The position numbers were made by a program, and so were the translations under genes. Below, piece after piece: positions 1-7,909 of a stretch of DNA of 10,328 nt. How positions within the stretch are numbered: the first letter of the stretch is position 1; every line of letters begins with the position of its first letter. Origin of the DNA: Eubacteriales bacterium (lineage in GTDB: Bacteria; Bacillota; Clostridia; Lachnospirales; JAVBJY01); contig JAVBJY010000111.1 of NCBI GenBank assembly GCA_031546735.1, positions 1-10,328 of the forward strand, given 5' to 3'. Below the pieces are notes generated by a model. That model was given only the letters and a program-made list of their open reading frames with translations, did not search any database and had not been told where the DNA came from.

Positions 1-237
1 AGTCTATGGGCAATTTCTGAAAAGCTGACAGGGATAAAATATGTATTTTAGCGGTCACATCAGTCATGATGATGAACAAACAGCAGATAATTTTAAATAA
101 AATAAACCCGTTCATTGGCTGAAGAAAAATCAGAAGATACAACTAAGGGTTGGGATAATATCGTAATCCCTGACTTTAAAAAAATATTCGAGTAGTTTGA
201 AAATAAGCAGATAGCTGTGTAAGACGCAAAATAAACT

Positions 238-274
238 TGGCATATGTTACCCAAACATATGCCATTAATTTTAT
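238..274 (+). terminator. Rho-independent terminator-like hairpin (TGGCATATGTT-ACCCA-AACATATGCCA) followed by TTAATTTTAT
   Basis: Perfect 11-bp inverted repeat with a 5-nt loop and a U-rich 3' tail on the plus strand. It lies in a 434-bp AT-rich region that contains no ORF of 60 aa or more. Confidence 0.5.
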
Positions 275-434
275 AAAAAAGTTGGTTCTTACTTGACACA
301 TTCGTATGTATTGGCGGTTGTGGTCGAATTGATGGAAAACAAATATTATGTATGTTATTATAAGAATAGCTTATTAAAGAAGAAATTTTATATAATCGGC
401 ATTGTAAGAAACGGATTATTAGTGAGGTGTAGAT

Positions 435-1241
435 ATGTTTAAGTTTTTGAAGGAAATTCTCATTGACCCAATTAAAGATGGTATTGCTGAGGCTAAGCAG
501 GAGCTTGCAGATGAGGAAATCAAAGCTCAGGAAACAACGGAAGAAAAATCGCTCGCGACCCAAAAGCAACAAATAGAAACTATACCTTATGAAGAAAAGT
601 TTTACTTGGCTATAGCGGCTCCTTTTCGTGTCACAGTTTTTCAGGATTGGTTTAGTGTATTTAAAAATAATACCGATTATGATGACCATTATCCTTTGCA
701 CCTGTACACCTTTGGCGATGCACGGGTAATTACTCAACAAAACAAAAATGACCTTAGTGATGTTTTAAAGCGGGATTTCAATATCACCGACAGGGATAGT
801 GCACTTAAAACTGTGGCAGCGTTTCTGAAACCATTCTCCATTTGTAACAAGCTCACGGAGTACCAATCAAATGACTTTGAAGATATGAAAAAATCACTTG
901 AATTACTATCAAGGTATGATATGCAAAGTACGCAAGCGGTAACTTGCTGTATTGCTGCTCATATTTTAACAGCGAGCACTGATGTTGGATATTTAGACAA
1001 GAGTTTTTCCAAGGATGTGCTTGCGGATGTGATGGAATTAATAAAAGCTAACTTTTCAAGCTGGCAAAGTTTTAGCGATTGCTTTTTGCAAGGTGAGACG
1101 CTTTTAAAGCTAAACAAGGGACTGGGGAAAAAACTTTTAATCAAATATGTTAACTACCTTCGAGAGAAAAAAGGCAGCCCGTGGAATATTGTTCCATGGG
1201 AGTATAAATATGAGTTTGTCTCATTACAGATGCGTGATTGA
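435..1241 (+). CDS. Hypothetical cytoplasmic protein; C-terminal half resembles DUF1266 (motifs FSSWQSF..FLQG and GSPWN..W)
   Basis: 268-aa ORF with ATG at 435 preceded by GAGGTG (423-428, 6-nt spacer). The N-terminus is acidic and helical with no hydrophobic segments. The C-terminal stretch ...IKANFSSWQSFSDCFLQGETL...KKGSPWNIVPWEY matches my recollection of the DUF1266 consensus (fsSWeeFg..yllGr..W ... sPWn). The overlapping minus-strand ORF 93-740 is low-complexity and judged spurious. Confidence 0.7.
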   Translation: MFKFLKEILIDPIKDGIAEAKQELADEEIKAQETTEEKSLATQKQQIETIPYEEKFYLAIAAPFRVTVFQDWFSVFKNNTDYDDHYPLHLYTFGDARVITQQNKNDLSDVLKRDFNITDRDSALKTVAAFLKPFSICNKLTEYQSNDFEDMKKSLELLSRYDMQSTQAVTCCIAAHILTASTDVGYLDKSFSKDVLADVMELIKANFSSWQSFSDCFLQGETLLKLNKGLGKKLLIKYVNYLREKKGSPWNIVPWEYKYEFVSLQMRD

Positions 1242-1277
1242 CTTGTTTATTACAAATGTGTTCTGGATAAAAAATCA

Positions 1278-1306
1278 TTGACAATTATTGGTTTTTTTCA
1301 TACACT
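1278..1306 (+). promoter_or_regulatory. Sigma-A-type promoter for the 2TM gene: TTGACA (1278-1283) - 17 nt - TACACT (1301-1306)
   Basis: Perfect -35 hexamer, 17-nt spacer and good -10 hexamer, ~130 nt upstream of the GTG start. There is also a long leader. Confidence 0.5.
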
Positions 1307-1435
1307 AATTTAGATGTAATTTGTAATAATAGGGAGTGTTTAAAATCACCTTTACGGGAGCCAAAATTTATTGGTTTTAATGATTTATCTTTGCATTTTT
1401 AACAATCCCTAATAAAATTTTTGAGGAGGACAGCA

Positions 1436-1861
1436 GTGGATAAAAGTGAATTTGGAAAACTTGAGGCAGAAATAAAACCTAACATCAAGCAATATTTGAT
1501 TGAAGGGTTGATGGGAATTTTTGCGCTTGCAGTAACTGTTTTATTTCATGACTATTTGTCAAATTTTTCTTGGAAGGGACTCCCTATCGTTGGGGTTATT
1601 TCAGTTGTTGGCATTTTAATGGTATTGGTAGCATTTTATAAATTTTTTAAGCACAGAAGTTCAGAGGATAAAATTGAACTATATGAATCAGGAATCAAAT
1701 TTAATGATTTTATTGCCGAATATAAAGATTTTAAAATATCCTATAATAGAGGTTTTATAGGTAGATATTTGGTTCTTCATAACAATATAGAGCAATCGGT
1801 ATTTAAATATCCTATTTCATCCAATGATTTGAAATTAATTACTGCAAAATTAAGTAAATAG
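1436..1861 (+). CDS. Small membrane protein: two N-terminal TM helices plus a ~75-aa C-terminal soluble domain (bacterial PH-like/YdbS-type topology suspected)
   Basis: The ORF track starts at TTG 1421. GAGGAGGA at 1423-1430 followed 5 nt later by GTG at 1436 is a better start, and no in-frame ATG occurs until about 1508. Hydrophobic stretches GLMGIFALAVTVLF and LPIVGVISVVGILMVLVAFY indicate two TM helices, followed by KHRSSED and a beta-rich tail. A TTGACA-17-TACACT promoter lies upstream at 1278-1306. Confidence 0.6.
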   Translation: MDKSEFGKLEAEIKPNIKQYLIEGLMGIFALAVTVLFHDYLSNFSWKGLPIVGVISVVGILMVLVAFYKFFKHRSSEDKIELYESGIKFNDFIAEYKDFKISYNRGFIGRYLVLHNNIEQSVFKYPISSNDLKLITAKLSK

Positions 1862-2088
1862 TAACTGTTTTTTGATATTATATCTCACTAAAACAATGAT
1901 TACATATACGATTGCGTATGCGCCCGTTTTCAATTTCAAATACAAAAAGTTCATTTTTAGTAGTGACCTTTTACAAAGTGCTCGAAGTGGGTTAAACAAC
2001 ACTGATACATTATTTGTTCTATTGTTTTCCACGGTTGCATCTCCTTTTTTTGTTTTACTGCTTTTTCATATATTGGGCAATTTTTTTT

Positions 2089-2132
2089 GCACTAAAAAAC
2101 AGGCATCATTTTGATACCTGTTTTTTTAGTGC
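2089..2132. terminator. Bidirectional intrinsic terminator between convergent genes (2TM gene on +, esterase on -)
   Basis: GCACTAAAAAACAGGCATCA-TTT-TGATACCTGTTTTTTTAGTGC forms ~20-bp arms with one mismatch. An A-tract precedes the stem and a T-tract follows it, so it works as hairpin plus U-tract in both orientations. It lies between stop codons at 1861 (+) and 2267 (-). Confidence 0.7.
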
Positions 2133-2266
2133 TTGTTTCTTTATACCCAAACTTAGAAAAGTATCCCCAAAGAATGGAATTTCTTCCCTTGGGGATTTTT
2201 TATTTGGTAGGAACTTACGGTTAAACGTCCGCAAGGCAAACTTTTTCACATATGTTTCTACATATT

Positions 2267-5200
2267 TTAACCAAGCGTTGATGTTACAGGTTTAGCCAAT
2301 GGTATCATATCCTGTTCAGAAGTCCATAAAAATAACTTTATCGTATACGGATTGGATATTTCTTCAGCTATGTTTAGATTTGTAAACGCCCCTGCATTAT
2401 CGCCTTTGTTGAACACTTTACTTTCGTCGAATTGCACATACACCTGTTTTCCGGTGGTATCATATATCGACATCATGACCCTGCCTCTTGCGGCATCGCC
2501 GCTGTTGCTCACCTTGTATTGCACATCCGTTACTGTGCGTTTGTCGCCAGTAGTGTTGTATTGTACGTTGGTTAAGGCAAGTTCCATTAATACACCATCG
2601 ACACCAGGAATGGCAGGCGCTTTTAACGTATTAAAAATCTGACCCAATCCATACATGTTTTTGGAAACAATATTAGTTGCAACCAGATAAGCATTATATT
2701 CTGCACCTAACGCACTGGTGTGGGTGTTATCGATTGCGGTAGTGGTTTGTGCGAGAAGTGGCACTACTTTCTCAGCGCCCAATTTGACGTATAATGCCTT
2801 CGTTTGCTCAGTCAAATCAACCACCGGCAGATTGGGAATAAATTCTTTAGCCAAATCTCTGATTGCCTGTGGATAATCGCCGCCCGAATACGTTACGCCA
2901 TTCGCCGTCTGGTTTACCGTTATATGTACAGACGTGTTGTTTGTATAGTTATTGCTGGTATTGCGTCTTACAATTGGTGTAAAGAGAATCACATCTGCCC
3001 CTTTACTTCTCGCAATGTCAATATAAAGATTCTTCAAGTTCGCTTTGAATGAGGATGACTGCCCTGCATAACTAGAAGGAAGATTTGGGTCGGAATAATG
3101 TGTGGCATACGTTGAACCACTAAACTCATCATTATGACCAAAGCCCAATATCAACACATCGCCTACGCCCACGTTTGCTGCAAAATCAGCATACCAGTCT
3201 GCGTTTTGAGTAGGATAACTCTTGGAGCTTCTGCCGGAGGCTGCAATGTTTTTCACTATATAATTGCTGCCGTTCTTCACAAGTCCACTCAGTTTTTCGC
3301 CCCATCCCAGTCTAGGAACCAGATAATCGGCGTTTGTCACATCACCGAGATGTGCACTTGCGGTAGAATCACCGATCACCCAAATCGTCTTTTGCCTGTC
3401 AACCGGCTTACGTACCAATGACTCTATTGCAGTAGAAATTCTTGCCGTCATTGCATCCACCAATTGCTGTTGAGACTTCTTGAGCCCTCTTACTTGATTC
3501 ACATCAGCAAGGGCTTGGGTTACGTTGTCGAGGTTTTCATAAAGTGCCCCATTCAGTTGGTTTGCCGCAGTTATTGCACGGTCAAGCTCGGTATAATCAG
3601 CGGATTCTTCCTCCGTACTGCCGCCATTTGCGATTGTCTTCAAGTTTGCGTTAAGCACTGCTGTAACGGTTGGTTGTACCTCGCTTGAATAATTTCCCGC
3701 TGAACTTCCTTGCGTGTAAGCTGTCACAGTGCCGTTTGCGCTAACTGTAAGTGCCGTGTCACCTGAATTGGATTTACTGGTTATACTAGACGGAAGCTTT
3801 ACCACCTTTGAGATGTCGAAACCCAATTTTTGTATCTCCATAATCATGAATTCAGCCATAACAAACCCACCTGCTTTGCTATGGTGTGTGCTGTCGCCAA
3901 CGTTGAAATATTGTCTGGATAGAGGCGATGCAGTGGCTGAATCTGTGCCAGAAGCAGCAGGGTCACTTTTGTAGGTGTCTATGTAGAACTTCTTGCTAAG
4001 TTCGAATAAGTCGATAACATTAACGCCTAATTCTTCACCGACCTGTCTACACGCAATGACATACCCATCTTTGTTTATTTCATCACCAGCCGCAATGTCT
4101 TCTTTATGATGCGGTTTTATTGTGATGGGGTTGCCTGCTTGCCAATAAAGTCTTGAAACAGGGGTGACAATAATGGGGATCGCGCCTGCTTGTTTTGCCA
4201 TTTTTACATACTCCCCAAGATACCACTTATACGTACCGCTTTGGTTTATATTGGTATAAATGCCTGATGGCGCAGGCCATGTCGTTCCGTCTTTAACGGC
4301 AGCAATCGTTGGATAAACCCCACTTGCATTTGGCACGCCTAAAAATGTGCCTTTGGCCGGGTCTACGGTAGATGTATCGTTATGTCCAAACTGGATAAAA
4401 AGGTAATCGCCTTTTTTGATACCAGCAGCGATAGCCGCATAATTTGTAGCGTTTGTATCGTTCATAAAACTGCGGACACCACGTCCGCCATTTGCGTAGT
4501 TAATCACCTTAACTTGATCTTGCGCATAGAAGTACTGTAAAAATTCGCCCCATGAGCCTTCATTTTGATCTCTATTACTAGAGAAAACGCCGCTTGCTTT
4601 ATAGTCTTTCACGGTGGAGTCGCCTGCTAACCAAACATTAATACCTTCACCCGGAGGGATTACCTCCCCAGGTTTTGATGGATCTTCATAACCCGCCACT
4701 ACGGCACCAACAACGGTATACGCCTCAGCCGCTTCGGTTTTTGTAGCGGTTTTTGGCGTGACGACCACCTTGATATTGTATCCAACGTCGCCTGCTTGCA
4801 CTTGGTATGTTTTGGATAGATTCGCTAGGCTTGTTTTTATTAAAGTTTCGTTTCCGTCTTTTACTCTATACCAGTTTATTAATGACAAATCATTCGCATC
4901 GTTTTGCCCTAACGAATAACGAACCGTAAGGGTATGCCCTTGTTTGGGAATATTGATATCGCCGTTGTCTGTAATAAGTGGTTTTTGTGTAAACGCTAAT
5001 GTTTCTGCCTCTGCTTGATAATAAGACGGTATCCAGCTATTAAAATAATCTGAAAATTTCGGGTTTGGATCTTGCGCCAGTGCTACAACTGCACGTCCCG
5101 CTGTGCTGACTGCTGTACCATCCATCAGCGTTGTGCCAAATTCTTTAAAGGTTACCCCTGGGGCTGTAGGTGCAGTGCCACTCATCGAAACCCAGCCTAC

Positions 5201-7675
5201 TGCTGCGACTGTGTTCGATGCATCTAGCTTTGTGTTATAGAAGAAAACTTCCAAAGGCGCGCCCCATGGTCTGCCCAAATTGCTTTCTGCCACTTTCATT
5301 GTGCTATCGGGATTTTTGATCACTGTACAATTATAGAAGAAATATTTACCGTTGTTTGCCGCTGTAAGGGTACTGCCTGTCGCAGTATCTGAACGACCGT
5401 ATGCACTCAGTGTACACTGATCAAACACAGAATTTGAACCACCGCAGATAAAGTCTGTGGCACCTTCTATATAGCAGTTTTTGTAGTAAACCTTTGTGCT
5501 GTTGCCGACAGCATTGCTTCCAGTTCCAAGTGTATCTTGGGAGCTAAGGAACGAACACTTATAAAACTCTGACATATCAGATTGTATATACATAGCCGCC
5601 GCACGTTCAATCGCCGCCGTACATCTTACATCTGCGCCATACGTACGCACAAACCGTATGGCTTCGCTCATGCTCAACTCAACGCCATCCGCAATTTCCT
5701 CATCGGTAATATAACGGTTAAAGGAAGACTCAAAGACGATATTTTTTGCCTTAAAATAAGTAGCGGTCGGTTTTACAAAAACAGTTGGACCCCAGTTACT
5801 CACAATGCCCTTGTCATACTTGTCGAAAGCGGCTTCTGCATCGTAAAATCCATTTTTGGCACTATAGTAAACATATCCTATACCGTAATAACCACTAAGA
5901 ACCGCATCGCCTTTCTCTGGTTCATCATTGATAAGGGTGACATACGGTGTCTCTATGGTTAATTGCCCGCGGTATACGCCGGGTGCTATATGGAGGGTGA
6001 TGCGTTGATCCTCGCTTGTCGGATTCATTCTTCTGACGGCATTTAACGCTTCTTGCACCGTGTGGAAGTTATCTGCCGCTTTATCAGGGTATCCGACATA
6101 AAGATTAGCCTTTTTCTCCAATGGCGTAGGCGCTGTAGTCCCTGTGAAAAGCAAATCTTTTGTTACGGTCTTGCCGCTTACGACGACATGCCCTACCGTA
6201 CGATGACCAGATATAGTGGCAACCGCCTCATACGAACCATCACGCAAATTCACTTCATAACCGTTGCCGCCAGTAAGTGTTGTCGGATAGGTATAACCAT
6301 CTGCAACATTTTTAAAACTGAGTGCTGTTACGGAATCAGAAGGTAAATTGGAAACCGTATCATCTGTCAATAAAAGATACTTGCCTATATTGCCGTCTTT
6401 CAGCAATTTAAAACTGCCACTTGCACGATACGTCGGCTTTTTCTCTAAAATAATATTTTGAGACGTCGGCATATTTGCCGATACTGTTCCGCCAGCTTTA
6501 ACCAAGTAGTCATTAACACCCGTAAGTTCAGCCGTGTATTTAACGTCAGGCTCTAATGTCGCCGTGAAGGTCAAGGCATTTTTGTCAATGGTGAGGGGAA
6601 CATCATCAAAAGGTGAATCTTCTGGTGTTTTCATTGTAATGGAAATATCGGTTTTTTTGTCATAATCAGCAGCAAACCCTTGAATGCTGCCAGAAAAGAC
6701 GTATGTCGATTTTTCTTCCACAACCAGAGGATCAACAGACATTCCGTTTAGTATCGTATCTTTTTCCGCATTTGTCGTAACGATTTTTGTATTGTTAGTA
6801 AAACCGAACCCGACCGCATGTGATAGTTTTGCAGTAAAGGTGCAGTCTGCTGGAAGTGCCGCCGTAAAGCTGGTTCCATCAAGAGTCGCCTTATACTCAT
6901 AATGCGTACTGTTTTCAACAAACGAAAGTTCATATCCTTGCGGAAGTGCCAAACCCGCAAGATCCATGCTGCCCGTTACCGTAACAGGCGGTGTCTTGGT
7001 TACCCGCGCAATAATAGGTCTAAGCGCCGTACCGCCGGGACCGTAATTAATAAGGTAGCTACCGCTTTCCGGTATTATAAATTTAAGCATTGCGGCACTT
7101 CTGGCAGCAGAAAGGATACCTAACTCTCTTTTTGCAATTTCTTTGCCGTCTTTTGTTAAAACAACATAGTCCGTCGCTGATCCACCCGCAAGCGTACCAC
7201 CATAAAGTGTAATAACGGAGCCTGCATCCGCATCAAGCTTGACAGCCCCTCTGGCTGCGGAATAAGCAGAGGAATTAACGTTATAATAGGCCGTTGTCGA
7301 ATACTTGTCGGGATAGGATAGCGCTGCATGGGTAGCAGCAGCAACCCCCTGCCTTGCCCCAGACGCATCCAAAAAACTCAAACGGTCACCTCCGTTAAAG
7401 TAGAATGACAATCCACCCATGTCAAGGGGGGATGTAGCAGTCATCTTGGCTACGGTCATCGTGTTGTTACTACCGTCATGCCCCTTCGTAGTCCAATAGC
7501 CTAGCGGAATTTTGTTGTTGTAAAGCGCTGTGTCACTCTCTTGGTTACAGCCAAAATCCCAAACATCAATCTTAGCCCCTTCAGCACGAGTCGTAGCTGG
7601 TGTAACACTGATTACACCGAGCACCATGCTGGCCGATAAAGCGGTGCTGATAATTTTTTTTAACGTTTTATACAT
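2267..7675 (-). CDS. Secreted multi-domain pectin de-esterifying enzyme: CE8 pectin methylesterase domain plus two SGNH/GDSL (CE12-like, rhamnogalacturonan/pectin acetylesterase-type) domains, with Ig-like beta domains
   Basis: 1802-aa ORF with RBS GAGAGGAG upstream of ATG 7675. The N-terminus has a signal peptide (MYKTLKKIISTALSASMVLGVISVTPATTRA|EG). The CE8 hallmarks are FHTVQEALNAV, GVYRGQ, SSQDTLG (nt 5528-5539), DFICGG (nt ~5438-5455) and LGRPW (nt ~5264-5278). SGNH domain 1 has LAGDSTV (nt 4613-4624), NGGRGVRSF, FGHND and DSTHHS. SGNH domain 2 has VIGDSTA (nt 3362-3373), ASGRSSKSY, GFGHND and DNTHTS. The length, continuous frame and domain logic make this a real gene. Confidence 0.92.
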   Translation of the reverse strand: MYKTLKKIISTALSASMVLGVISVTPATTRAEGAKIDVWDFGCNQESDTALYNNKIPLGYWTTKGHDGSNNTMTVAKMTATSPLDMGGLSFYFNGGDRLSFLDASGARQGVAAATHAALSYPDKYSTTAYYNVNSSAYSAARGAVKLDADAGSVITLYGGTLAGGSATDYVVLTKDGKEIAKRELGILSAARSAAMLKFIIPESGSYLINYGPGGTALRPIIARVTKTPPVTVTGSMDLAGLALPQGYELSFVENSTHYEYKATLDGTSFTAALPADCTFTAKLSHAVGFGFTNNTKIVTTNAEKDTILNGMSVDPLVVEEKSTYVFSGSIQGFAADYDKKTDISITMKTPEDSPFDDVPLTIDKNALTFTATLEPDVKYTAELTGVNDYLVKAGGTVSANMPTSQNIILEKKPTYRASGSFKLLKDGNIGKYLLLTDDTVSNLPSDSVTALSFKNVADGYTYPTTLTGGNGYEVNLRDGSYEAVATISGHRTVGHVVVSGKTVTKDLLFTGTTAPTPLEKKANLYVGYPDKAADNFHTVQEALNAVRRMNPTSEDQRITLHIAPGVYRGQLTIETPYVTLINDEPEKGDAVLSGYYGIGYVYYSAKNGFYDAEAAFDKYDKGIVSNWGPTVFVKPTATYFKAKNIVFESSFNRYITDEEIADGVELSMSEAIRFVRTYGADVRCTAAIERAAAMYIQSDMSEFYKCSFLSSQDTLGTGSNAVGNSTKVYYKNCYIEGATDFICGGSNSVFDQCTLSAYGRSDTATGSTLTAANNGKYFFYNCTVIKNPDSTMKVAESNLGRPWGAPLEVFFYNTKLDASNTVAAVGWVSMSGTAPTAPGVTFKEFGTTLMDGTAVSTAGRAVVALAQDPNPKFSDYFNSWIPSYYQAEAETLAFTQKPLITDNGDINIPKQGHTLTVRYSLGQNDANDLSLINWYRVKDGNETLIKTSLANLSKTYQVQAGDVGYNIKVVVTPKTATKTEAAEAYTVVGAVVAGYEDPSKPGEVIPPGEGINVWLAGDSTVKDYKASGVFSSNRDQNEGSWGEFLQYFYAQDQVKVINYANGGRGVRSFMNDTNATNYAAIAAGIKKGDYLFIQFGHNDTSTVDPAKGTFLGVPNASGVYPTIAAVKDGTTWPAPSGIYTNINQSGTYKWYLGEYVKMAKQAGAIPIIVTPVSRLYWQAGNPITIKPHHKEDIAAGDEINKDGYVIACRQVGEELGVNVIDLFELSKKFYIDTYKSDPAASGTDSATASPLSRQYFNVGDSTHHSKAGGFVMAEFMIMEIQKLGFDISKVVKLPSSITSKSNSGDTALTVSANGTVTAYTQGSSAGNYSSEVQPTVTAVLNANLKTIANGGSTEEESADYTELDRAITAANQLNGALYENLDNVTQALADVNQVRGLKKSQQQLVDAMTARISTAIESLVRKPVDRQKTIWVIGDSTASAHLGDVTNADYLVPRLGWGEKLSGLVKNGSNYIVKNIAASGRSSKSYPTQNADWYADFAANVGVGDVLILGFGHNDEFSGSTYATHYSDPNLPSSYAGQSSSFKANLKNLYIDIARSKGADVILFTPIVRRNTSNNYTNNTSVHITVNQTANGVTYSGGDYPQAIRDLAKEFIPNLPVVDLTEQTKALYVKLGAEKVVPLLAQTTTAIDNTHTSALGAEYNAYLVATNIVSKNMYGLGQIFNTLKAPAIPGVDGVLMELALTNVQYNTTGDKRTVTDVQYKVSNSGDAARGRVMMSIYDTTGKQVYVQFDESKVFNKGDNAGAFTNLNIAEEISNPYTIKLFLWTSEQDMIPLAKPVTSTLG
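2270..2623 (-). other. C-terminal ~115-aa beta-rich domain of the esterase (Ig-like or carbohydrate-binding?); no LPXTG motif or dockerin recognised
   Basis: Sequence VLMELALTNVQYNTTGDKRTVTDVQYKVSNSG...YTIKLFLWTSEQDMIPLAKPVTSTLG has no hydrophobic anchor and no sortase motif. Confidence 0.35.
2660..3394 (-). other. SGNH/GDSL hydrolase domain 2 (CE12-like acetylesterase), aa ~1428-1672
   Basis: Block I IGDSTA, block II ASGRSSKSY, block III GFGHND and block V DNTHTS. This domain is paralogous to domain 1, with an insertion carrying the NxT/S-rich segment NTSNNYTNNTS. Confidence 0.8.
3812..4648 (-). other. SGNH/GDSL hydrolase domain 1 (CE12-like acetylesterase), aa ~1010-1288
   Basis: Block I GDSTV, block II NGGRGVRSF, block III FGHND and block V DSTHHS, in canonical order and spacing. 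Confidence 0.8.
5051..6118 (-). other. CE8 pectin methylesterase (pectinesterase) catalytic domain, aa ~520-875
   Basis: Ordered motifs of family CE8: GxYxE-like GVYRGQ, QDTL with the catalytic Gln/Asp region, DFICGG (catalytic Asp in the DFIFG motif) and LGRPW. Confidence 0.85.
6131..7582 (-). other. N-terminal ~485-aa region of the esterase with no recognisable catalytic motifs; aa ~35-235 are an unknown Gly/Ala/Ser-rich domain, aa ~235-515 are repeated Ig-like beta-sandwich modules
   Basis: Repeated strand-like patterns occur (YELSFVEN..YEYKATLDG..FTAALPAD.TFTAKLS and PLTIDKNALTFTATLEPDVKYTAELTG). No CE8, SGNH or pectate-lyase signature motifs are present. Confidence 0.4.
7583..7675 (-). 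other. Signal peptide (Sec/SPI type) of the esterase, predicted cleavage after TRA (aa 31)
   Basis: Positively charged n-region (KTLKK), hydrophobic h-region and an A-x-A-like TRA motif in the N-terminal sequence. Confidence 0.6.
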
Positions 7676-7815
7676 TATTTCTTTACTCCTCTCTTTTTCA
7701 GGTCATTCTTAAATCGGGTATATTTGTCGAAAAATATATCGTTACTTTTTTCTGACCACCTTATTTTCGCAACATCTCCTTTTCTATATTTTTTTTGCTT
7801 TATGTTACTATTGTG

Positions 7816-7845
7816 AGTATAACATGAAATTGCTTTGTTAGTCGA
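7816..7845 (-). promoter_or_regulatory. Candidate promoter of the esterase gene: extended -10 TGTTATACT (minus strand, 7816-7824) with weak -35 TCGACT (7840-7845), giving a ~140-nt leader
   Basis: An extended -10 (TGnTATACT) compensates for the weak -35. It is positioned between the 53-bp palindrome and the esterase RBS GAGAGGAG. Confidence 0.35.
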
Positions 7846-7856
7846 GGGGCAAGTAC

Positions 7857-7909
7857 ATGATGATAGCGGTGACGAGTAAAAATATTTTACTCATCACCGC
7901 TATCATCAT
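7857..7909. repeat. 53-bp near-perfect palindrome (25-bp arms, one mismatch) in the SPFH-esterase intergenic region
   Basis: ATGATGATAGCGGTGACGAGTAAAA-ATA-TTTTACTCATCACCGCTATCATCAT. The arms are complementary except C7873 versus T. It sits just upstream of the candidate esterase -35 and 135 nt downstream of the SPFH stop codon. Confidence 0.85.

Follow-up and report, generated by a model that had tools for sequence, protein, structure and literature searches.

The stretch of DNA analysed here (the window) is the whole of contig JAVBJY010000111.1, 10,328 bases long, from a Clostridia (Bacillota) bacterium. Its largest gene occupies positions 2267..7675 of the minus strand, a strand left unstated in the preliminary description of this DNA, and reads as a single frame of 1802 codons without interruption. 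The preliminary description proposed that one polypeptide combines a CE8 pectin methylesterase with two CE12-type SGNH acetylesterases. This domain content was borne out by PF01095, by two PF13472 (GDSL_2) stretches and by matches to 9MM2, RGAE, YxiM and PaeY. The gene and the domains of its product, in order from the N-terminus, are as follows.

2267..7675, minus strand: complete open reading frame (ORF) of 1802 residues, stop codon included, encoding a putative multidomain secreted pectin esterase (ORF reading)
7583..7675, minus strand: predicted signal peptide, residues 1-31, with lysines K3, K6 and K7, a hydrophobic core at residues 8-22 and predicted cleavage between TRA and EG
6989..7582, minus strand: N1, residues 32-229, a beta-sandwich like those of carbohydrate-binding modules (CBMs), putative pectin-binding module
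6116..6988, minus strand: N2, residues 230-520, three successive small beta-sandwich domains, transthyretin/DUF3823-like (AlphaFold2 model)
4985..6115, minus strand: CE8 pectinesterase domain, residues 521-897 (PF01095 and PDB match to 9MM2)
5603..5605, minus strand: codon of Arg691, in the motif IERAAAM, at the position of carrot Gln113 and PemA Gln153
4661..4978, minus strand: immunoglobulin-like (Ig-like) spacer, residues 900-1005, AIR9 A9-like (PF23197, E 2.2e-05, under the gathering score)
3776..4648, minus strand: SGNH-1, residues 1010-1300, CE12-type esterase (PF13472 and PF00657) with Ser1020, Gly1064, Asn1099, Asp1261 and His1264
3620..3775, minus strand: Ser/Thr/Gly-rich linker, residues 1301-1352 (composition; weak match to the closest relative, P0002)
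3410..3619, minus strand: FIVAR-like helical domain, residues 1353-1422 (weak match to Pfam FIVAR, PF07554, E 0.3)
2621..3394, minus strand: SGNH-2, residues 1428-1685, diverged CE12-type esterase with Ser1437, Gly1481, Asn1515, Asp1649 and His1652
2270..2608, minus strand: C-terminal Ig-like beta-sandwich, residues 1690-1802 (113 residues)

The CE8 domain was recognised by PF01095 (Pectinesterase) with an E-value of 1.6e-21, scoring 76.8 bits in the whole protein and 82.6 bits as an isolated segment, above the cutoff of 27. Its best PDB match was 9MM2 (PmeC5; E 4.4e-23, about 320 residues), followed by pectin methylesterases of fungi, insects, plants and Dickeya; all PDB matches were pectinesterases. 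NCBIfam returned partial matches only, to pectinesterases of the YbhC, PemA and PemB type. Homology to 9MM2 over 320 residues predicts that the domain folds as a right-handed parallel beta-helix. In an alignment with the carrot pectin methylesterase (1gq8), residues Q113, Q135, D136, D157, R225 and W227 correspond to Arg691, Gln713, Asp714, Asp741, Arg802 and Trp804, respectively. The acid/base Asp, the nucleophilic Asp and the catalytic Arg of the carrot enzyme (D136, D157 and R225) are all kept, as D714, D741 and R802. The earlier statement that the CE8 active site has its full set of signature residues is accurate for five of the six (Gln713, Asp714, Asp741, Arg802 and Trp804) and mistaken for the first anion-hole Gln, which is Arg691. 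Of the anion-hole Gln pair (Q113 and Q135 in carrot; Q153 and Q177 in PemA), only the second is therefore kept, as Q713.

All six signature positions, Arg691 included, were invariant in 55 of 55 homologous CE8 domains. Because the Arg is invariant in this set, it is not a lesion of a single gene. The same position is occupied by Gln in 5c1c, 4pmh and 1gq8. The Arg-for-Gln replacement is shared by a whole clade of CE8 domains from large secreted proteins of Firmicutes and spirochaetes, PmeC5 included. Since CAZy membership is assigned by sequence similarity and PmeC5 has been described as CE8, Arg691 marks a sub-clade and does not exclude the domain from the family.

The two SGNH domains each carry a full catalytic quartet, as had been proposed. 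Blocks I (GDS), II (G), III (GxND) and V (DxxH) are intact and aligned in both, and the domains show the CE12-style motifs GDST, GWGE, GRSxxS[FY], GHND and DxTH. The preliminary description named two outcomes that would speak against it, namely the placing of these domains in a non-carbohydrate lipase or esterase family and the loss of catalytic residues on careful alignment. No such placing was found. PaeY was the only significant NCBIfam match for either domain (43 bits for SGNH-1; 59 bits, E 3e-16, for SGNH-2), and all PDB matches with E < 0.01 were CE12 enzymes: YxiM (2o14, E 3.4e-10) and RGAE (1deo, E 4.3e-07) for SGNH-1, and RGAE (E 2e-4, full length) for SGNH-2. On alignment, every SGNH catalytic residue was kept; in CE8 the Asp-Asp-Arg set was kept and the first Gln was lost. 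The SGNH catalytic residues are invariant or nearly so across 27 homologues of SGNH-1 and 15 homologues of SGNH-2, and in the latter all five are invariant. With the PaeY equivalog model NF041897 the score was 92.7 bits, far from the cutoff of 1000, and only the esterase part of the profile was matched; the window protein is not a PaeY orthologue.

Identity between SGNH-1 and SGNH-2 is 24-26% (blastp E 1.5e-10). Across the relatives they separate into two clades, with about 57% identity within and about 28% between them. Their paralogy is old, with separate orthologues for each, in agreement with the earlier view of the two as diverged paralogs; a recent tandem duplication of the domain is ruled out by the two old clades. 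Distinct specificities of the two would be compatible with this old paralogy and are put forward here purely as a conjecture. The Asn/Thr/Ser-rich insert reported for SGNH-2 (residues ~1560-1590) is real in composition. As an insert it did not hold up, for it aligns with a loop found in 15 of 15 SGNH-2-type domains (RRT..LHIT..GGDYP) and is only some 4 residues longer here.

The architecture was found to be widespread. A homology search of 5.8 billion proteins gave 58 matches, and the collinear core N1-N2-CE8-Ig-SGNH1 was present in 26 non-self clusters at 37-47% identity. The closest relative, P0002, is collinear across 92% of the length at 47% identity. In the relatives, the SGNH-2-type domain follows SGNH-1 in some and is N-terminal in others. 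Furthermore, a scan of one genome per species with a family-specific N-terminal alignment yielded 79 loci, in which domain mapping of the ORFs gave the following arrangements.

At least 22 loci: (N1-)N2-CE8-Ig-SGNH1-SGNH2, for instance in Lachnospira multipara ATCC 19207, L. hominis NSJ-43, Anaeromicropila populeti 743A, [Clostridium] fimetarium DSM 9179 and Paenibacillus mesotrionivorans
About 12 loci: SGNH-2 at the N-terminus, mostly in metagenome-assembled genomes (MAGs) of Lachnospiraceae
About 30 loci: SGNH-1 as the sole SGNH domain, for instance in L. eligens and Treponema saccharophilum

One relative (P0015) additionally carries a PL1 pectate lyase and SLH repeats. The family is found in known pectin degraders, namely Lachnospira multipara, L. 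eligens and Treponema saccharophilum. The rarity implied by the preliminary description is thus not upheld: the fusion occurs commonly among Lachnospiraceae and related bacteria, and had been noted at the Pfam level in a rumen survey, which remarked that PF01095 proteins frequently have several domains, among them pectate lyases and PF13472/PF07859 esterases (Kelly et al., 2019; PMC7807696). Beyond that Pfam-level remark, neither a description nor a biochemical characterisation of a fusion of CE8 with CE12-type domains was found in the literature. Some genomes hold tandem CE8-family genes with different accessory domains. At L019 (3..6806 and 7008..12677), a gene with CE8 only and a CE8-SGNH1 gene adjoin, and at L035 (5885..10915 and 11323..15519) two CE8-SGNH2 genes adjoin. 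These tandem genes suggest local duplication and domain shuffling.

In the N-terminal part, residues 8-22 form the most hydrophobic 15-residue window of the whole protein, and the conserved N1 domain of the homologues begins directly after residue 31; a Sec signal peptide, and with it secretion, is predicted from these features. An AlphaFold2 model of residues 32-520, built from a family alignment of 15 sequences, reached a mean pLDDT (the model's confidence score) of 85.4. The fold of N1 matches the carbohydrate-binding domains of putative pectate lyases (PDB 8x8h and 8wc1) and CBM77. It can be assigned to the 8x8h/8wc1 type by this shared fold together with a detectable sequence relationship. 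Sequence identity to 8x8h, 8wc1 and CBM77 is just 13-15%, and ligand binding by N1 is putative; the modelled fold suggests that the ligand would be pectin. No papers describing the structures 8x8h or 8wc1 were found in the literature. The N2 sandwiches always precede the CE8 domains of this clade.

The Ig-like spacers and helical linker of the preliminary description are present as beta-sandwich spacers and the helical residues 1353-1422. Every core relative keeps the spacer of residues 900-1005 in the same place, after CE8 and before SGNH-1. The helical segment matches seven tandem repeats of about 68 residues in another protein (P0032), whose precomputed Pfam list has PF07554 FIVAR, and a segment resembling it also sits between the SGNH domains of [Clostridium] fimetarium (L025).

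The C-terminal domain has a different distribution. It has no match in Pfam or NCBIfam, domain mapping found it in none of the CE8 relatives, and a word-indexed homology search with it gave no match. An exhaustive HMMER search placed it in 25 other proteins (P0087-P0111), in 24 of which it ends 0-5 residues from the C-terminus. The domain (about 90 residues) is marked by the motif V.MAIYD..GKLV ... GDN.G.F..I.IP ... YTVKLFLWDS...M.PLA. Its carriers are otherwise unrelated proteins with signal peptides, whose modules include BspA-type leucine-rich repeats, Big_2/CHB_HEX_C, a papain-type protease with lectin, phage-lysozyme-like domains, and GLUG or WG repeats. At least some carriers come from a Gram-positive setting, and one adjoins Wzy_C and Gram-positive conjugation genes. 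A sorting-domain model of the type IX secretion system (T9SS; PF18962) weakly matched 2 of 23 members of this domain family. The T9SS reading of the C-terminus was rejected because the query itself has no match to PF18962 and the slipin encoded on the contig is nearest to sequences from Clostridiales and Lachnospiraceae.

The statement that no recognisable anchor is present was confirmed. Pfam found no SLH, dockerin or cell-wall-binding repeat in the window protein, no LPXTG-like motif was seen, and hydropathy showed no C-terminal transmembrane segment, the signal peptide being the only hydrophobic segment. Relatives carry various anchors at their C-terminus: dockerin (P0017 and P0018), SLH (P0015), PETG with a transmembrane segment (P0004) and a transmembrane tail (P0021 and P0023). 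The last two, from L. eligens-type clusters of 515 and 298 members, are the most abundant relatives with a single SGNH domain. In both, a Pro/Thr-rich linker is followed by a hydrophobic segment and a terminal KKKK; there is no LPXTG motif, and this end looks like a C-terminal membrane anchor. Because the C-terminal domain of the window protein occupies the slot that holds dockerin, SLH, sortase or transmembrane modules in the relatives, it may be a surface retention or sorting module.

The signals around the gene and the other features of the window are listed below.

7686..7692, minus strand: ribosome-binding site AGAGGAG, about 10 nucleotides 5' of the ATG at 7675 (read directly from the sequence)
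7816..7845, minus strand: candidate sigma-70-type promoter, TCGACT, 18-nucleotide spacer, TG-TATACT (consensus match only)
7857..7909, minus strand: hairpin 5' of the esterase gene, in the interval that separates it from slipin, 25 base pairs, 96% complementary, 3-nucleotide loop
2094..2201, minus strand: two hairpins 3' of the esterase stop codon, at 2158-2201 and 2094-2126, both with T/A runs on their flanks
435..1241, plus strand: DUF1266 gene
1421..1861, plus strand: small membrane ORF
8047..9225: slipin gene
9648..10304: truncated rtcB gene

Matches to the sigma-70-type promoter in the region were not more numerous than expected from shuffled sequence, and the candidate is accordingly weak. 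The intergenic hairpin upstream of the esterase gene is unusually long and probably terminates transcription of slipin, and the two hairpins beyond the stop codon are likely terminators. Because hairpins separate the gene from slipin and stand 3' of its stop codon, the esterase gene looks monocistronic; it would form its own transcription unit if the upstream hairpin terminates the slipin gene.

The other genes of the contig encode a DUF1266 protein, a small membrane protein, a slipin/SPFH protein and a truncated RtcB, and none is related to pectin. For this reason the 'dedicated pectin-degrading organism' of the preliminary description cannot be deduced from the contig; that idea rests only on the pectin degraders among the cultured carriers of the family. 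The left end of the window (1..2260, with the DUF1266 gene and the small membrane ORF) has a G+C content of 31-35%, lower than the 44-46% of the esterase gene and the remaining contig. These 2.2 kb may have a different origin or may simply consist of AT-rich small genes. Between the truncated rtcB and slipin genes (9448..9541, minus strand), Rfam reported a partial tRNA, whose 31 bits exceed the gathering score of 29. Its anticodon arm is shortened and ARAGORN calls no tRNA there. At the E-value threshold the segment also matches YrlA, a Y RNA-like family, its 26 bits lying under the gathering score of 69. It looks like the tRNA-like module of a Y-RNA-like small RNA adjoining rtcB.

Taken as a whole, the gene product is very probably an enzyme that a Clostridia bacterium secretes by the Sec route and that removes esters from pectin with several catalytic sites. 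Its domain identities, the conservation of its catalytic residues, the old paralogy of its SGNH domains and its recurrent architecture were computed here. In the proposed mechanism, N1 would target the secreted enzyme to pectin and the three beta-sandwich spacers would present the CE8 domain. CE8 would then remove 6-O-methyl esters from galacturonate, with Asp741 as nucleophile, Asp714 as acid/base and Arg802 and Gln713 assisting; the oxyanion would be stabilised by Gln713 plus, in this clade, Arg691. The two CE12 domains would hydrolyse O-acetyl esters by means of Ser-His-Asp and Gly/Asn oxyanion holes. Tethering of the sites could make the removal of methyl and acetyl groups on the same polymer stretch local and mutually enabling, and the de-esterified stretch would be exposed to pectate lyases and polygalacturonases. 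PemA and PaeY of Dickeya act in synergy on esterified pectin. Pectate lyases and polygalacturonases are blocked by methyl and acetyl esters, so pectin fermentation in gut and rumen depends on the removal of these groups; the removal also frees methanol, a substrate for methylotrophic methanogens (PMC7807696, PMC12109409).

Several observations weigh against this interpretation. The signal peptide was called by eye and from hydropathy only. No other pectin genes were found on the 10,328-base contig, and in two cultured relatives, L. multipara and A. populeti, the homologous genes do not lie within pectin loci either; most genes around them are unrelated and uninformative, the exception being a gene for a GH43-CBM3 protein next to the A. 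populeti homologue. The isolated SGNH-2 domain scores 27.7 bits with PF13472, under the gathering score of 32.9. Furthermore, CE12 also holds enzymes acting on xylan and cephalosporin C, so that pectin is only a presumed substrate of the SGNH domains. One or both could instead be general cell-wall esterases (xylan, mannan) or non-carbohydrate acyl esterases. Pfam recognises them as generic GDSL_2 only, their identity to characterised CE12 enzymes is low, and the PaeY equivalog cutoff is far off. Such roles are nonetheless quite improbable, given that the PDB matches at E < 0.01 and the significant NCBIfam matches were only to CE12 pectin and rhamnogalacturonan acetylesterases, that the motifs are of CE12 style and that both SGNH types are fused to pectinesterase in the relatives examined.

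The CE8 domain raises a similar question, since its Gln-to-Arg change is located in the anion hole and +1 subsite. The authors of the PmeC5 study tie the Gln153/Arg206 exchange to changed substrate positioning and obtained lower docking scores; their paper comprises structure and docking, without an enzyme activity assay (PMC12109409), and no published activity data for the Arg-containing clade were found in the literature. The clade, in which Arg is universal, might therefore not consist of classical homogalacturonan methylesterases: Arg691 could direct the domain to another ester or pectic context (acetylated or rhamnogalacturonan-type), or the domain could be mainly a binding module. As Arg691 would then redirect CE8 or leave it a binding role, the protein would not be the 'complete de-esterifier' that was proposed. 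This is considered unlikely, for the clade keeps the Asp-Asp-Arg catalytic set, Gln713 and Trp804 without exception, an Arg side chain could still stabilise the oxyanion or bind a carboxylate, and the clade is consistently fused to PL1, PL9, CE12 and a pectate-lyase-type CBM in pectinolytic taxa. Finally, an assembly or binning chimera of separate esterase genes might be suspected of so long a frame, which comes from a short (10.3-kb) metagenome-assembled contig; the protein is a singleton cluster, its exact sequence is recorded once, and an exact look-up found no identical protein on other contigs. This has next to no probability and is ruled out by the collinear relatives: the order N1-N2-CE8-Ig-SGNH1-SGNH2 recurs in at least 22 independent genomes, isolates among them, P0002 is collinear over 92% of the length, and the frame is uninterrupted with G+C content even along the gene.

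A secreted pectin de-esterifying enzyme with three catalytic domains thus remains the preferred reading. A protein with CE8+CE12+CE12 domains is as such no surprise for a CAZyme specialist. It is a compact tri-catalytic example of a family widespread in Lachnospiraceae, and a convenient construct for questions about the synergy of tethered sites, the role of the clade-specific Arg, and a split of the CE12 paralogues between O2 and O3 acetyl esters or between homogalacturonan and rhamnogalacturonan I. Two points might be new, a suggestion made with considerable doubt: the C-terminal domain as an undescribed surface retention or sorting module, and the Arg-for-Gln CE8 clade as one with non-classical catalysis or substrate preference.

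The protein can be compared with several known systems. RGAE of Aspergillus aculeatus (1deo/1k7c) and YxiM of Bacillus subtilis (2o14) have the SGNH fold and the Ser/Gly/Asn/Asp-His blocks in common with both SGNH domains. The alignment spans blocks I-III and V at low identity, and the loops between blocks III and V are longer in the window domains. RGAE, unlike the window protein, is a single-domain fungal enzyme. In Dickeya dadantii, PemA (CE8) and PaeY (CE12) bring the same two chemistries to pectin, but as separate proteins. PemA and PemB match the window CE8 and PaeY matches both SGNH domains in NCBIfam, although the scores lie far under the Dickeya equivalog cutoffs (92.7 against 1000; 39.6 against 700) and PemA has Gln153 where the window protein has Arg691. 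PmeC5 of Butyrivibrio fibrisolvens D1 (9MM2; WP_073390447; PMC12109409) belongs to the same CE8 sub-clade and has the same Asp-Asp-Arg triad. Its Arg206 corresponds to Arg691, both standing in place of the first anion-hole Gln. It is likewise large (2089 residues), secreted and multidomain, 9MM2 being its catalytic domain, but it differs in having a PL9 pectate lyase and adhesin-like/cell-wall-binding domains attached and no SGNH esterases.

Further parallels are the 'pectinesterase family proteins' of L. multipara, L. hominis, A. populeti, [Clostridium] fimetarium and a Eubacterium sp. MAG (MDR1754211.1), which share the order N1-N2-CE8-Ig-SGNH1-(linker)-SGNH2 with the window protein at 34-47% identity and keep all catalytic residues. 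They are longer (~2050-2450 residues), with other terminal modules and no C-terminal Ig-like domain of the window type. To conclude, the window protein is a divergent addition, at no more than 47% identity, to a widespread and already noticed multi-esterase pectin family.

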